Origin: Escherichia coli
Lineage (GTDB): Bacteria > Pseudomonadota > Gammaproteobacteria > Enterobacterales > Enterobacteriaceae
Reading direction: 5' to 3' (one strand)
DNA length: 64,000 bases
Assembly (NCBI RefSeq): GCF_024298765.1
Contig: NZ_CP101210.1
Below, piece after piece: positions 1-50,434 of this stretch. Every line of letters begins with the position of its first letter. Positions within the stretch are counted from its first letter, which is position 1. The notes below the pieces were generated by a model that worked only from the letters and a program-made list of their open reading frames with translations, was not told the origin of the DNA and searched no databases. Position numbers and translations under genes: made by a program.

Positions 1-1086
1 GCCACCGATGCGCTTTATACCACAATGCTTACCGGGATGGGGGCGCGACGTCAGCCACTGATGTGGGCCATCACCACCGCCGGGTACAACATTGAGGGGC
101 CGTGCTACGACAAGCGGCGGGAAGTCATCGAGATGCTCAACGGCTCGGTGCCTAACGATGAACTGTTCGGGATCATCTATACCGTTGATGAAGGTGACGA
201 CTGGACCGACCCGCAGGTGCTGGAAAAAGCCAATCCAAATATTGGCGTGTCGGTTTATCGCGAATTTTTGTTAAGTCAGCAGCAGCGTGCGAAAAATAAC
301 GCCCGTCTGGCAAACGTCTTTAAAACGAAACACCTCAATATCTGGGTGTCGGCACGTTCGGCGTATTTCAACCTGGTGAGCTGGCAGAGCTGCGAGGATA
401 AATCACTGACCCTTGAGCAGTTCGAGGGGCAGCCGTGCATTCTGGCCTTTGACCTGGCGCGTAAGCTGGATATGAACAGCATGGCGCGACTTTATACCCG
501 CGAGATTGACGGTAAAACGCATTACTACAGTGTGGCCCCGCGCTTCTGGGTACCGTATGACACGGTGTACAGCGTCGAGAAAAATGAAGATAGACGGACA
601 GCCGAACGCTTTCAGAAATGGGTGGAAATGGGCGTCCTGACCGTTACCGATGGTGCAGAGGTGGATTATCGCTACATCCTCGAAGAGGCCAAAGCGGCGA
701 ACAAAATCAGCCCGGTCAGTGAGTCACCCATCGACCCCTTCGGGGCGACCGGGCTGTCACATGACCTTGCTGATGAAGATCTGAATCCCGTCACTATCGT
801 CCAGAACTTCGCCAATATGTCCGATCCGATGAAAGAGCTGGAAGCAGCGATTGAATCGGGACGCTTTCATCATGACGGCAATCCCATCATGACCTGGTGT
901 ATCGGCAATGTGGTCGGCAAAAACATGCCTGGTAACGATGATTTAGTGAAGCCCGTCAAGGAGCAGGCGGAAAACAAAATCGATGGTGCGGTTGCACTGA
1001 TTATGACGATCGGTCGGGCAATGCTCAAAGAACCTGGCGATTTCCTCTCATCTCTTGATCCGGACGATGATCTCTTAATTCTATGA
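1..1086 (+). CDS. Terminase large subunit, C-terminal ~360 aa (5-prime end outside window)
   Basis: The frame of ORF 25..1086 stays open back to nt 1. The sequence (WAITTAGYN..., [10 protein letters not shown]-terminal nuclease-like part) and its position directly upstream of the portal fit HK97-type large terminases. Confidence 0.8.
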
Positions 1087-1244
1087 AATCACTAATTGCT
1101 GATGTTATCGGGCTGACTGGTTTTGGCCTGCTTACGTGCGGAGTTTACCTGCAGTTTGGTATGGCTCCGGCTCTGATTTTGTCCGGTGCTTTACTGCTGG
1201 TGGGTGCACTGGTTATGGTCAGAAGGGGGACGCGTGCTGCTTGA
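1083..1244 (+). CDS. Small hydrophobic protein, 53 aa, two predicted transmembrane segments (not in ORF track, below 60 aa)
   Basis: The ATG at 1083 overlaps the terminase stop (ATGA). Translation is [53 protein letters not shown]. The stop at 1242-1244 overlaps the preferred portal start (GTG 1234). Confidence 0.4.
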
Positions 1245-2460
1245 TGCTCTGTTCAGAAGTAAATCACTGGAGAATCCTTCCACCCCGATAACCGGGGATG
1301 CCGTTGATACTGATGGGCTGTTCCGGGCAGACGTTTATGTCAGTCCTGAAACTGCGATGAAACTGGCTGCGGTGTATTCCTGTATCTATGTCCTGTCTTC
1401 CAGCCTTGCCCAGATGCCGTTGCATGTTATGCGCAGGCACAATGGGAAGGTTGAGCCCGCACGCGATCATCCGGCGTTTTATCTGGTTCATGATGAGCCC
1501 AATACCTGGCAAACCAGTTACAAATGGCGCGAACTGAAGCAACGTCACATCCTTGGCTGGGGGAATGGGTATACCTGGGTGAAACGTAATCGTCGCGGTG
1601 AAGTCATATCTCTGGATTGCTGTATGCCGTGGGAAACGACGCTGATGAATACTGGTGGCCGATACACCTACGGTTTGTACAACGAATATGGGGCGTTTGC
1701 GATCAGCCCCGACGATATGATCCACATCCGAGCGCTGGGTAATAATCAGAAGATGGGGCTGAGTCCGATTATGCAACATGCCGAAACAATAGGCATGGGG
1801 ATGAGCGGTCAGAAGTACACAGAAAGCTTCTTCAGCGGTAATGCCCGTCCGGCGGGGATAGTATCCGTTAAAAGCGGACTCAATAAGGAAAGCTGGGGCT
1901 GGCTTAAAGAACAGTGGCAGAAGGCATCGCAGGCGTTACGCCGCCAGGAAAACAAAACCATGCTGCTGCCAGCCGATCTGGATTACAAGGCACTGACTGT
2001 GTCGCCAGTTGACGCTCAGATCATTGACATGATGAAGCTGAACCGTTCAATGATCGCCGGTATTTTCAATATTCCTGCGCACATGATTAATGACCTCGAA
2101 AAAGCCACCTTCTCCAATATTTCTGCGCAGGCGATTCAGTTTGTCCGCTACACGATGATGCCGTGGGTGACGAACTGGGAGCAGGAGCTTAACCGTCGCT
2201 TGTTTACCCGCGCTGAGTTAGCCGCCGGGTATTACGTCAGGTTCAATCTGACGGGGCTTTTACGCGGAACTCCGCAGGAGCGCGCGCAATTCTATCACTT
2301 CGCTATTACCGATGGATGGATGAGCCGTAATGAGGCCCGCGCATTTGAGGATATGAATCCGGTTGAAGGGCTGGACGAGATGCTGGTAAGCGTGAATGCT
2401 GCTAACCCGGCAGGAGATTTTAAGCCCCCAAAAAACGATGAGGGAAAAACCAATGAATGA
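1234..2460 (+). CDS. Portal protein, HK97 family
   Basis: Lies in ORF 1186..2460. I prefer GTG 1234 because AGGGGG sits ~6 nt upstream. The N-terminus ([17 protein letters not shown]), size (~408 aa) and position between terminase and prohead protease fit a portal. Confidence 0.85.
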   Translation: MLLDALFRSKSLENPSTPITGDAVDTDGLFRADVYVSPETAMKLAAVYSCIYVLSSSLAQMPLHVMRRHNGKVEPARDHPAFYLVHDEPNTWQTSYKWRELKQRHILGWGNGYTWVKRNRRGEVISLDCCMPWETTLMNTGGRYTYGLYNEYGAFAISPDDMIHIRALGNNQKMGLSPIMQHAETIGMGMSGQKYTESFFSGNARPAGIVSVKSGLNKESWGWLKEQWQKASQALRRQENKTMLLPADLDYKALTVSPVDAQIIDMMKLNRSMIAGIFNIPAHMINDLEKATFSNISAQAIQFVRYTMMPWVTNWEQELNRRLFTRAELAAGYYVRFNLTGLLRGTPQERAQFYHFAITDGWMSRNEARAFEDMNPVEGLDEMLVSVNAANPAGDFKPPKNDEGKTNE

Positions 2461-3055
2461 CCGTGAAATCCGTTGTTACAGCGGTGAGGTGCGTGCTGAG
2501 CGGCATGACGATAACCCGGCGCACATTATCGGTTATGGATCGGTGTTTGACTGTCGTTCTGAGCTGATATTCGGTTCATTCCGCGAAATCATCCGGCCCG
2601 GCGCTTTTGACGATGTGCTTGGTGATGATGTACGCGCACTGTTTAACCACGATCCTAATTTTATTCTTGGGCGTAGTGCAGCAGGCACGCTGAATCTTTC
2701 AGTTGATGAGCGCGGATTACGCTATGACATCCAGGCTCCGGAGACACAGACCATTCGTGATCTGGTGCTGGCCCCGATGCAACGTGGAGATATTAACCAG
2801 TCATCTTTCGCTTTCCGTGTCGCCCGTGACGGTGAGGAGTGGTATCAGGATGAGGACGGGGTTGTTATTCGCGAGATAACCCGCTTTTCCCGTCTGCTGG
2901 ATGTCAGTCCTGTGACATATCCTGCCTATCAGGAGGCTGACTCGGCTGTTCGCTCCATGAAAGCATGGCAGGAGGCGCGCAACAGTGGCGCGCTACAGAA
3001 AGCCATTAATCAACGTATGGCGCGTGAACGCGTCCTGACCCTTCTTAACGCGTAA
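2453..3055 (+). CDS. Prohead maturation protease, HK97 family
   Basis: Lies in ORF 2396..3055. ATG 2453 overlaps the portal stop (ATGAATGA). The pattern GYGSVFD...ELIFGSF, ~200 aa, directly upstream of the capsid gene is typical. Confidence 0.8.
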   Translation: MNDREIRCYSGEVRAERHDDNPAHIIGYGSVFDCRSELIFGSFREIIRPGAFDDVLGDDVRALFNHDPNFILGRSAAGTLNLSVDERGLRYDIQAPETQTIRDLVLAPMQRGDINQSSFAFRVARDGEEWYQDEDGVVIREITRFSRLLDVSPVTYPAYQEADSAVRSMKAWQEARNSGALQKAINQRMARERVLTLLNA

Positions 3056-3065
3056 AGGAAACATC

Positions 3066-16118: not shown

Positions 16119-16538
16119 ATGGATAGATACTTCTATTCACAAAAAGAAAATGGTTTTTTTACCGATTTAAATAAAGCACCTTCAGATGCTGTTGAGATAA
16201 CCACGGATGAATGGCTGTTACTACTGGATGGTCAGGATAATGGCATGAAAATAGTCAGCAATCAGGAGGGATATCCGGTTTTGACAGAGCAACCACCTTT
16301 ATCAAAAGAAAACCTTATTGCATTGGCGGATTTGAAAAAAAGAAAACTTATTAATGAAGCCAACGAGCACATGAACAGCAGACAATGGCCAGGTAAAGCG
16401 GCGATTGGTCGCCTGAAAGGTGAGGAACTGGCGCAATATAATTTGTGGCTGGATTATCTGGACGCACTGGAACTGGTCGATACTTCCGGTGCGCCAGATA
16501 TTGAATGGCCTACGCCTCCGGCAGTTCAGGCCAGATGA
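16119..16538 (+). CDS. Tail fibre assembly chaperone (for the currently expressed fibre)
   Basis: 139 aa, directly after the fibre gene. It has the C-terminal motif LWLDYLDALELVDTSGAPDIEWP typical of Tfa/U proteins. Confidence 0.7.
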   Translation: MDRYFYSQKENGFFTDLNKAPSDAVEITTDEWLLLLDGQDNGMKIVSNQEGYPVLTEQPPLSKENLIALADLKKRKLINEANEHMNSRQWPGKAAIGRLKGEELAQYNLWLDYLDALELVDTSGAPDIEWPTPPAVQAR

Positions 16539-17115
16539 CGTCCGGCGCGGTGCTGGTATCTGTTGCCGTCACCGCGTCAATGTAATCCAGCACAGCGTTA
16601 AGTCGGGTGTTTTCTGTCTGCATCAGCTTCCGCCCGGCCTGCAATTTCAGTTGAATCAGACTAATGGAAGCCATTGCAGTATCAATCAGTGACTGACGCT
16701 GTGCTTCTGCCGCGTCTACTGCGGCGCTATGCTGTGCCTCAGTATCGGTCACCCATTTCTCACCATCCCATTTATCGTATGGCGTTAATGGGGCGATAGT
16801 GGTTGTATTTTCAGGGTAATCACCCGGAACTGTGATTTCTTTGGTATCTCCCGTTTCGGTACTATAGACAACTTCACCGCGATGGTCTGGCACATATTCC
16901 CATGAATTTAAATCTACAGAGCGACAGATTGCATAACCAGCTTTATGTGTACCTGGTGCATCCAAACAGGAACATGCCGGGATACCGACGCCGACAGCGA
17001 GATATTCAGTTGATGTAGAAATATATTCCCGCGTTTCACCATCATAATTATAAACGGTAATATCTCCCGCTTTTATGGCAATGAGTTCGCTATTTAATAC
17101 AGCTTTATTCATCAT
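16510..17115 (-). CDS. Tail fibre assembly chaperone (alternative, TfaE-like)
   Basis: 201 aa, resembling the e14/Mu-type Tfa as I remember it (MNKAVLNSELIAIKAGDITVYNYDGETREYI...). ATGA overlap with the alternative fibre segment. Confidence 0.75.
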   Translation of the reverse strand: MMNKAVLNSELIAIKAGDITVYNYDGETREYISTSTEYLAVGVGIPACSCLDAPGTHKAGYAICRSVDLNSWEYVPDHRGEVVYSTETGDTKEITVPGDYPENTTTIAPLTPYDKWDGEKWVTDTEAQHSAAVDAAEAQRQSLIDTAMASISLIQLKLQAGRKLMQTENTRLNAVLDYIDAVTATDTSTAPDVIWPELPEA

Positions 17116-17632
17116 GCGGCCCTCACAATATAATTAAAAGCGATGTTACGAGGACGAGTTTCTGTACCTACATTTTCACTAATTTCACCATAACGTTTAA
17201 CACTACGAGAGCTAATAGCTCGTAGTGAGGAAGGCACCTTAAGACCGGGTTCGTCCGTTTTAACTATTCCCCCGTCACCGTATGTAGCCAGTATTCCTGG
17301 GTTTACTCCTTCCCGTGCACTTCCTGCGGCGAGTCCGTCCCCTGTCCATAATTCCATATAGTGTGCATGGTCCAAAATTGTGTGTGGCTGCCAATTAAGC
17401 AAAGCGCGACCAGTATCAATCCCGCGACCGTCATCCCAGCCACGAATAAATTCACCGCGTAAATCAGGCAATTTATTGGTCGGGTAAGCCTTTGCCAGTT
17501 CCGGGTATTCTTCAGCAGAAAAAGCCGCACCGTTGCATTTCAGCCAGCCTGTTGGCGGAGTGGCGGAAGGCCACGGAACAGGCACACCAACGGGTAATGC
17601 CGAACCTTCTCCCAAACCAACGTTTATGAAAA
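17112..17632 (-). CDS. Alternative tail-fibre C-terminal segment, promoterless and startless in this orientation
   Basis: From the crossover site it reads GLGEGSALPVGVPVPWPSATPPTGWLKCNGAAFSAEEYPELAKAYP...LPDLRGEFIRGWDDGRG (collar-type fibre tip as in Mu S / e14 StfE). The frame is continuous with the constant part after inversion. The 5-prime extension of the ORF-track ORF to 17660 lies outside the segment and is not credible. Confidence 0.7.
17607..17632 (+). promoter_or_regulatory. Right invertase crossover site (pix/gix-like)
   Basis: The site reads ttctcccaaacc aa cgtttatgaaaa: two 12-bp half-sites around a 2-bp core, 55 nt upstream of the invertase ATG. Confidence 0.8.
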
Positions 17633-17686
17633 TGCAGAAATAACGAGCAAATGGCATCATTCCTGCTTTTGTCAGGGAGATCTACC

Positions 17687-18241
17687 ATGCTTATTGGCTA
17701 TGTACGTGTGTCAACAAATGACCAGAACACAGATCTACAGCGTAATGCGCTGAACTGTGCAGGATGCGAGCTGATTTTTGAAGACAAGATAAGCGGTACA
17801 AAGTCTGAAAGGCCGGGACTGAAAAAACTGCTCAGGACATTATCGGAAGGTGACACTCTGGTTGTCTGGAAGCTGGATCGGCTGGGGCGTAGTATGCGGC
17901 ATCTGGTCATTCTGGTTGAGGAGTTGCGCGAACGTGGCGTTAATTTTCGCAGCCTGACGGATGCTATTGATACCAGCACACCGATGGGGCGTTTTTTCTT
18001 TCATGTGATGGGTGCCCTAGCTGAAATGGAACGAGAACTGATTGTTGAACGAACAAAAGCTGGACTGGAAGCTGCTCGCGCACAGGGACGAATTGGTGGA
18101 CGTCGTCCCAAACTTACACCAGAACAATGGGCGCAGGCTGGGCGATTAATTGCATCAGGCGTTCCTCGCCAGAAGGTGGCGATCATCTATGATGTTGGTA
18201 TATCGACACTGTATAAGAAGTTTTCGGTCGGAGATAAATGA
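17687..18241 (+). CDS. pin: Serine DNA invertase of the Pin/Gin/Cin/Hin family
   Basis: 184 aa from ATG 17687 (GGGAGA upstream). MLIGYVRVSTNDQNTDLQRNAL... is nearly identical to e14 Pin as I remember it. The catalytic Ser is in VRVSTNDQ, and there is a C-terminal HTH. Confidence 0.9.
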   Translation: MLIGYVRVSTNDQNTDLQRNALNCAGCELIFEDKISGTKSERPGLKKLLRTLSEGDTLVVWKLDRLGRSMRHLVILVEELRERGVNFRSLTDAIDTSTPMGRFFFHVMGALAEMERELIVERTKAGLEAARAQGRIGGRRPKLTPEQWAQAGRLIASGVPRQKVAIIYDVGISTLYKKFSVGDK

Positions 18242-18279
18242 AACCGTAGCACGTCGTATGCAAGATCGTGCTGCGGTTT
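18241..18279. repeat. Hairpin module copy A (13-bp stem, 13-nt loop) between pin and the GIY-YIG gene; probable bidirectional terminator
   Basis: aaaccgtagcacg (18241-18253) pairs with cgtgctgcggttt (18267-18279): 12 Watson-Crick pairs plus one G.T. Homologous to copy B at 19264-19321. Confidence 0.6.
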
Positions 18280-22389: not shown

Positions 22390-22752
22390 TGGTGGAGCTG
22401 GCGGGAGTTGAACCCGCGTCCGAAATTCCTACATCCTCGGTACTACATGCTTAGTCAGTCTTTACATTCGCTTGCCAGCTGCGGACGGACACGCCACTAA
22501 CAAACTAGCCTGATTAAGTTTTAACGCTTCAACCCCAGGCAGGGCTTCCACGCGATCTCTTTTGGGTTTGACCTCTCTTGATCCCCGTCCTAAGAGCGGA
22601 GGCTAGGGAGAGAGGGCTCTAAGCAGGTTATTAAGCTGCTAAAGCGTAGTTTTCGTCGTTTGCGACTATTTTTTGCGGCTTTTTACGAGGCCAACCGCCC
22701 CTCGGCATGCACCTTGGGTTTCGCAAATCCCGTCGAATCCAGAATCAGCCCC
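22390..22752 (-). ncRNA. ssrA: tmRNA (SsrA / 10Sa RNA), complete, 363 nt
   Basis: The reverse complement starts GGGGCTGATTCTGGATTCGACGGGATTTGCG and ends GGGTTCAACTCCCGCCAGCTCCACCA. The tag reading frame at 22631-22663 encodes ANDENYALAA followed by a stop. Confidence 0.98.
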
Positions 22753-50239: not shown

Positions 50240-50316
<77 letters not shown>

Positions 50317-50358
50317 AATTTGCACGGCAAATTTGAAGAGGTTTTAACTACATGTTAT

Positions 50359-50434
50359 GGGGCTATAGCTCAGCTGGGAGAGCGCCTGCTTTGCACGCAG
50401 GAGGTCTGCGGTTCGATCCCGCATAGCTCCACCA
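50359..50434 (+). tRNA. tRNA-Ala (anticodon TGC)
   Basis: ggggctatagctcagctgggagagcgcctgcttTGCacgcaggaggtctgcggttcgatcccgcatagctccacca. Confidence 0.97.

Follow-up and report, generated by a model that had tools for sequence, protein, structure and literature searches.

The interval between the large terminase gene and the portal gene of a prophage in Escherichia coli poses the question of whether it holds a gene of its own, and what the product of such a gene might contribute to the phage. The locus lies in a 64,000-nucleotide (nt) stretch of contig NZ_CP101210.1 (RefSeq assembly GCF_024298765.1), which is referred to here, at its full length, as the window. The interval contains a small open reading frame (ORF) on the plus strand that overlaps the neighbouring genes at both of its ends. 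It is almost certain that this ORF is a genuine late gene of an SfV-like prophage, with a predicted hairpin of the inner membrane as its product and reinitiation as its most likely mode of translation, that the portal gene has its Shine-Dalgarno (SD) sequence and start codon within the 3′ end of the ORF, and that the ORF is a member of the portal module. As to function, we tentatively favour a role of the peptide together with the portal. The ORF and the elements within it are as follows.

1083..1244, plus strand: small ORF of 53 codons and a stop codon, the product of which is a membrane hairpin of two helices (PHROG 7105; RefSeq WP_015364398.1)
1083..1086, plus strand: ATGA overlap, in which the ATG at 1083–1085 shares bases with the terminase stop codon TGA at 1084–1086 (CTATGA)
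1092..1151, plus strand: helix 1, about residues 4–23, Gly-rich and weakly hydrophobic, assigned from hydropathy, column conservation and AlphaFold2
1158..1160, plus strand: codon of G26, the nearly invariant turn of the hairpin, assigned from conservation and AlphaFold2
1164..1220, plus strand: helix 2, about residues 28–46, strongly hydrophobic, assigned from hydropathy, conservation and AlphaFold2
1221..1230, plus strand: SD of the portal gene, AGAAGGGGGA, with an anti-SD duplex of -10.8 kcal/mol, which also encodes R47-R48-G49

The coding status of the frame was assessed in a close-family sample of 88 related loci, in 87 of which the portal gene was located by tblastn. The small frame is intact in 88/88 loci, with a length of 52–53 amino acids (aa), and its position relative to its neighbours is similarly constant, with a 4-nt overlap with the terminase stop in 85 of the 88 loci and an 11-nt overlap with the portal start in 83/87. 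Stop codons are absent from this frame in all of the 57 distinct nucleotide versions, as compared with 0/57 for the +1 frame and 24/57 for the +2 frame. A shuffled sequence of the same composition remains open over 52 codons with P = 0.126. The frame is also open in 14/14 divergent members (median nucleotide identity of 53%), an outcome expected by chance with a probability of roughly 2e-13 if the members are taken as independent. Variation at the three codon positions is distributed as 34/24/45, the third position varying most, and the GC content of the third position tracks that of the host from 0.21 to 0.94 while that of the second position stays at 0.28–0.58. The protein motif is retained across 38% to 69% GC, and residues D7, G13, G20, G26 and G35 are invariant or nearly so even among members that are only 26–52% identical. 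An ORF of 52–53 aa occupies the same place in Edwardsiella, Salmonella, Klebsiella, Escherichia and Morganella phages at 67–75% nucleotide identity, and a Ralstonia phage (66% GC) has a 54-aa version.

The mean ratio of nonsynonymous to synonymous variation (pN/pS) is 0.58 for the small ORF, 0.40 for the C-terminus of the terminase and 0.19 for the portal; selection on the peptide is purifying but relaxed relative to the two flanking proteins. The original prediction had proposed a comparison of conservation and substitution ratios across relatives, in all of which the frame is intact. Its reading of the ORF as coding, with a small membrane protein of two helices as the product, is supported. 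The same prediction described the ORF as unlisted, which holds for the list of its reader and for the 2002 record of Shigella phage SfV but not for the mechanical ORF list or for RefSeq, both of which contain it. The ORF is in fact already known, as a hypothetical protein of RefSeq and a member of PHROG 7105. An RNA element in place of a gene was considered and dropped: the segment 1070–1260 folds with z = -0.96 (36 of 200 shuffles fold equally well), and promoter-like and terminator-like sites occur at chance level.

The reading of the small frame depends on where the portal gene begins. The two flanking genes are listed below.

25..1086, plus strand: 3′ part of the gene for the large terminase subunit, with a mosaic breakpoint about 60–80 nt before the stop
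1234..2460, plus strand: portal gene of the PF04860 type, with its true start at GTG 1234, as indicated by the RefSeq start and the conserved N-terminus

The portal begins at GTG 1234, not at GTG 1186. The N-terminus of the portal is conserved from the 1234 position onwards, and the start codon found there is ATG in 44/87 loci and GTG in 41/87. The upstream start fails because the extension is closed in four relatives (loci L005–L008), where a stop codon interrupts the portal frame 3 codons 5′ of the conserved start, and because ATG stands at the 1234 position in those 44 loci. The peptides that would be read upstream of the conserved start are unrelated among relatives. The possibility that the interval is no gene at all, being either non-coding or an N-terminal extension of the portal from GTG 1186, was weighed against these data. 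It draws on the 2002 SfV record (NC_003444; locus L002), in which the portal is placed at 1787–3061, equivalent to 1186–2460 of the window, from the homologous GTG and with the small ORF absent from the annotation, and on the portal frame of the window, which is open for 19 codons 5′ of GTG 1234. Against the closed and unconserved extensions, the frequent ATG with its strong SD and the coding evidence for the small frame, this possibility can be virtually dismissed. The start in the SfV record is probably 16 codons too early. The GTG at 1234 favoured by the original prediction is thus borne out, and the arrangement that would have spoken for the longer portal, a broken small frame beside a conserved extension, is the opposite of that found, since the small frame is intact everywhere and the extension is closed in four relatives. 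The analysis in this way fixes the portal start for SfV-like phages, the reference record of which omits the small gene. In 14/87 loci, the portal frame is open for 49–56 codons upstream and spans the whole small ORF, a feature that is absent from the other relatives.

The peptide has the properties of a membrane protein. Its grand average of hydropathy is +1.29, and both hydrophobic segments exceed the usual Kyte-Doolittle threshold of 1.6 in 19-residue windows, with values of about 1.7 for the first and up to 2.4 for the second. An AlphaFold2 model built from an alignment of 38 sequences shows a helical hairpin with helices at residues 2–25 and 27–52 and a turn at G26 (mean predicted local distance difference test score of 86.9). 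Hydropathy and model agree on the two hydrophobic helices that had been proposed for the ORF. In helix 1, residues D7, G13 and G20 are invariant and F14, G15, Y22 and L23 nearly so, and L31 and G35 are invariant in helix 2. The peptide is predicted to reside in the inner membrane with its two ends, K2 and the RRGTR tail, on the cytoplasmic side, an orientation suggested by the charge distribution only. A lipoprotein reading of the LLTC segment (residues 16–19) was abandoned, as C19 varies and no real lipobox is present.

Both overlaps that had been described for the ORF are seen in the sequence: its start with the terminase stop, and its 3′ end with the portal signals. The latter extends over 11 nt, with the GTG of the portal at 1234–1236 lying inside the 3′ end of the ORF, the stop codon of which is the TGA at 1242–1244, and with AGAAGGGGGA (1221–1230) preceding this GTG. 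No SD was found upstream of the small ORF itself, the anti-SD duplex amounting to +0.3 kcal/mol in the window with a family median of -1.0. Given this lack of an SD and the overlap of the start codon with the terminase stop, the ORF is probably translated at a low level by ribosomes that reinitiate after the terminase.

The positions 1221–1236 are coded twice. The codons AGA AGG GGG for R47-R48-G49 form the portal SD, and the codon of R51 includes the first bases of the portal start codon, so that residue 51 is R, N or H depending on which start codon, GTG or ATG, the portal uses. The rare codons AGA and AGG account for 71/103 Arg codons in the tails of the family and for 4/74 in the flanking genes. 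The conserved basic tail is therefore largely the ribosome-binding site of the portal gene read in another frame, which cautions against the assignment of a function to the peptide from its tail. A frameshift at AGA-AGG-GGG that would fuse the peptide to the portal was also considered. The overlaps of 11, 4, 1 and 14 nt among the subfamilies make a conserved fusion unlikely.

Database searches place the peptide in a large family of uncharacterised small proteins. The profile of PHROG 7105 is matched with E = 1.4e-21, residues 1–52 aligning to positions 1–52 of 52, followed by weaker matches to phrog_502 (E = 3e-5) and phrog_4810 (E = 0.0065). The motif of PHROG 7105 is found in the window peptide, with D7, G13, G20-x-Y/W-L-x-F/Y-G26, G35, the basic tail and the length of about 50 aa. 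A profile search returned 154 clusters at 90% identity, all of them annotated as hypothetical, and an exhaustive profile search yielded 228 representatives at 50% identity, nearly all of 45–80 aa. Distant members retain D7, G13, G20, G26, G35 and the basic tail. The named hosts include many Enterobacterales together with Pragia, Alcaligenes, Aliidiomarina and Ralstonia, and relatives in the same slot are annotated in Edwardsiella, Salmonella, Escherichia and Morganella phages. No match to the peptide was found in Pfam at E ≤ 10 or in PADLOC at E ≤ 1, and nothing meaningful in NCBIfam or among the PDB sequences. Its PHROG matches are confined to families labelled as unknown or as membrane protein, with no holin family among them. 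A Foldseek search of the model against viral structures returned nothing below E = 1, a helical hairpin being too simple a fold to be informative. When the peptide was compared with phages by tblastn, helix 2 was lost to low-complexity masking, and the match is confined to residues 1–29. Pattern scans of viral contigs (P0204, P0194) retrieved no relatives. In the full-text literature, no functional study was found of a membrane mini-protein upstream of the portal, and the matches to "small membrane protein" were generic text on holins.

The arrangement of genes around the small ORF points to a link with the portal. In the close family, the order is always large terminase, small ORF and portal. 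Among distant representatives, a PF04860 portal lies directly downstream in 10/10 (as assigned by Pfam), usually with an overlap of 1–14 nt, and the gene upstream is a terminase in eight and an unidentified fragment in one. In locus L093, the order is holin, small ORF and portal; in L094 and L095, five other genes separate the terminase from the small ORF, which still overlaps the portal by 11 nt. Phage phi1026b has a terminase closely related to that of the window, a different portal and no small ORF, and its terminase and portal genes are adjacent, as they are in HK97, which also lacks the small ORF. Since the portal follows directly even where the terminase is not adjacent, and phages with a related terminase but another portal type lack the ORF or carry a different one, the small ORF belongs to the portal module rather than to the terminase or to an island of cargo genes.

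The mosaic structure of the region is in keeping with this assignment. Shigella phage SfII shows 91% identity over the terminase gene as far as a point about 60 nt short of the stop codon, after which it continues with a different mini-protein and portal. At a breakpoint located at about 1005–1054 of the window, phages SfI, SfII and SfIV and about 960 E. coli genomes, which share the terminase up to that point, pass into another module of mini-protein and portal. The reverse is seen in Klebsiella and vB_EcoS phages, in which the DNA similarity begins 29–44 nt before the ORF and continues into the portal. The unit appears to have three parts, namely the terminase tail, the mini-protein and the portal. 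In this prophage, the module is combined with a myovirus tail, and it is also present in phage D3 and the vB_EcoS phages. If D3 and the vB_EcoS phages are siphoviruses, as we presume, in part from the naming convention, the small ORF would be tied to the head and not to the tail.

Where a portal comes after the small gene, its N-terminus in most cases reads M-[IL]-[LF]-D-x-L-F; the portals compared are those of the window (1234–1260), L009 at 2656, L090 at 3153, L094 at 3152, L096 at 2947, L183 at 337 and L186 at 3375. The portals of HK97 (MEEPKYTIDL) and phi1026b (MKQGKQRALG), which come without the small gene, do not have such a start. It could be a contact site or simply a mark of shared ancestry. 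In a metagenomic contig (L185, 751–4291), the place downstream of the small gene where a portal is expected is taken by an ORF of 106 aa without a Pfam match, beyond which lies an inverted block that includes a Mu F-like gene; this contig may be rearranged or a chimeric assembly.

Small genes at the same slot are known from other phages and offer a basis for comparison. One is orf3 of Pseudomonas phage D3 (phrog_4810), a 54-aa two-helix ORF that has an overlap of 4 nt with the terminase stop and one of 8 nt with the portal start and aligns to the profile of the distant members with an hhalign probability of 89.6% (E = 1.9e-6). It forms a separate PHROG and is devoid of the N-terminal M-K-x-L-x-x-D motif. 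The SfII_03 product of Shigella phage SfII (phrog_502), annotated as a putative integral membrane protein, has 60 aa and two helices, occupies the same terminase-portal slot with a stop that overlaps the portal start, and shares with the window peptide the pattern G-x-x-G ... G-x-W/Y-L ... A-G ... A-R. It differs in a gap of 11 nt after the terminase in place of an overlap, in an SD of its own and in a different portal type. Homology between the two is not established (hhalign probability of 8%). A scan with the SfII_03 pattern returned 80 near-identical loci and added little information. In phage lambda, gpW, a soluble 68-aa head-completion protein that binds the filled head, is encoded between A (large terminase) and B (portal). 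This is a small gene at the same position, but the window peptide is instead a hydrophobic hairpin.

We tentatively read the peptide as a membrane factor that works with the portal when proheads are initiated or DNA is packaged, a reading made by analogy to which we assign a rough probability of 0.35. Its site of action, shared with the portal, would be the inner membrane, where the peptide might retain or arrange freshly synthesised portal subunits. The precedent comes from bacteriophage T4, in which gp40 is a chaperone needed for the membrane-bound gp20 portal initiator (PMC9958956). As a viral protein that links assembly of the portal to the inner membrane, gp40 would be a functional analogue.

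Several observations weigh against a role of the peptide with the portal. There is no sequence similarity between gp40 and the peptide (hhalign probability of 0.1%), and gp40 is an acidic protein of 114 aa with no hydrophobic hairpin in its sequence. The neighbours of the gp40 gene are 41 and uvsX, not the portal gene, and the capsid lineage of T4 differs. HK97, the model for the capsid type of the present phage, lacks the gene, which rules the role out as a general requirement of HK97-type assembly. The peptide is under more relaxed selection than the portal (pN/pS of 0.58 versus 0.19), and the conservation of the tail is due in part to portal translation signals and not to the peptide itself. 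Within the close family, the divergence of the peptide tracks that of the terminase and that of the portal about equally (Spearman coefficients of 0.56 and 0.49). As this correlation did not discriminate, the link to the portal rests on the gene order of the distant loci, and adjacency to the portal could be a matter of translational convenience only.

A broader proposal is that HK97-like phages of Proteobacteria widely encode portal-coupled inner-membrane hairpins of about 50 aa (PHROGs 7105 and 4810, perhaps also 502) that tether or chaperone the nascent portal at the membrane. We consider this generalisation doubtful. If true, membrane-associated head initiation, so far a speciality of T4, would be widespread in a capsid lineage whose assembly is thought to take place free in the cytoplasm. 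A membrane hairpin stays with one portal class across diverse hosts and GC contents, yet HK97 does without it. As an object, the ORF changes little, being common in this phage module and already present in RefSeq and the PHROGs.

Other roles for the peptide were weighed on the same evidence. A holin-like, pinholin-like or lysis-timing peptide would accumulate late in the inner membrane and alter its permeability or potential. Class II holins and pinholins, such as S68 of phage 21, are small proteins with two helices, a Gly-rich and weakly hydrophobic first helix and a basic C-terminus. The window peptide, the product of a late operon, resembles them in size, in its two helices with both ends predicted in the cytoplasm (from charges only), in its weakly hydrophobic, Gly/Thr-rich helix 1 and in its short, basic C-terminus, and in L093 a holin gene lies directly upstream of the small ORF. 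It is, however, shorter than is typical of this class, with a tail of about 7 residues and no dual-start motif, and it is encoded outside the lysis cassette. No endolysin gene adjoins it. A lambda-family holin, a GH24 endolysin and spanins are encoded about 4 kb upstream, and the HNH gene and both terminase genes separate the small ORF from this cassette. Together with the missing match to a holin family in Pfam or the PHROGs, the probably low expression in the absence of an SD, and a conserved linkage to the portal rather than to lysis genes, these features make a lysis function unlikely. A different kind of explanation holds that the peptide is a by-product and that translation of the short ORF serves only to set the level of the portal or to keep its SD accessible. 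The start without an SD on the terminase stop, the portal SD and start codon inside the ORF, the relaxed purifying selection and a tail dictated by portal signals are all in line with a coupler of this sort. What such a coupler leaves unaccounted for is the fixed length in 88/88 loci and the persistence of a specific motif and a hydrophobic hairpin from 38% to 69% GC. Moreover, HK97 and phi1026b couple the terminase to the portal directly, with no spacer ORF, and in L093 and L094 the ORF is uncoupled from the terminase. We judge it decidedly unlikely that coupling is the sole function.

The suggestions of a moron that acts as a superinfection-exclusion protein or toxin, and thus of cargo that keeps out the DNA of incoming phages or is harmful to cells, came from the original prediction, which had regarded a small membrane protein inside a head-morphogenesis operon as unusual. 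Exclusion proteins such as T4 Imm and HK97 gp15 are precedents, the latter encoded inside a morphogenesis operon. A small inner-membrane protein, a gene that is absent from HK97 and phi1026b where the terminase adjoins the portal, and the placement of the neighbouring family 502 in the moron category of PHROG would suit such a gene. The locus itself does not have the marks of a cargo gene: no promoter-like site occurs on the plus strand and one weak terminator-like site is present, both at chance level, and there is no shift in composition (GC of 0.47–0.52 versus 0.49–0.56 in the flanks). With both ends overlapping late genes, the gene is unlikely to be expressed in the lysogen. All members of the portal clade carry it, in two proteobacterial classes and from 38% to 69% GC, and it is found with a myovirus tail here and in presumed siphoviruses. 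Neither a PADLOC match nor similarity to T4 Imm (hhalign probability of 0.1%) was detected. A moron is on these grounds very unlikely, and the gene is not an oddity but a fixed, translationally coupled part of the head module across phages of Gamma- and Betaproteobacteria. Nothing points specifically to the holin-like or exclusion roles that had been put forward; no match to a named holin or defence family was found, and the prophage has a full lysis cassette elsewhere. The genetic linkage to the portal and the hydrophobic hairpin would, finally, also fit a minor virion or ejection component that is packaged near the portal and enters the membrane of the next host during DNA entry. The probable low level of synthesis, the strong hydrophobicity with no soluble domain, and a distribution that appears independent of tail type render this highly improbable.

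The junction that contains the small ORF is 98% identical to that of phage SfV and 100% identical to that of E. coli EC1515 over the 601 bases compared, and it is present in 256/5,426 complete E. coli genomes. In the RefSeq annotation of EC1515, the ORF is WP_015364398.1, a hypothetical protein at the same coordinates, and the portal starts at the equivalent of 1234. The gene order in EC1515 runs from a lambda-family holin through the GH24 endolysin, spanins, HNH, the small terminase (P27 family) and the large terminase to the small ORF, the portal, an S78 protease, the major capsid protein and a contractile tail. The window and the EC1515 prophage differ by an indel further downstream. In the latter, oppositely oriented genes for tail fibre and tail-fibre assembly lie beside a pinE-type recombinase in what looks like an invertible tail-fibre segment. 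At about 16500–18250 of the window, two ORFs that run leftward (about 200 and 180 aa) stand beside a rightward ORF of 196 aa. The tmRNA gene (ssrA) at 22390–22752 on the minus strand marks the border between prophage and chromosome, and the genes for tRNA-Ile and tRNA-Ala at 50240–50434 point to a ribosomal RNA operon in the host part of the window.

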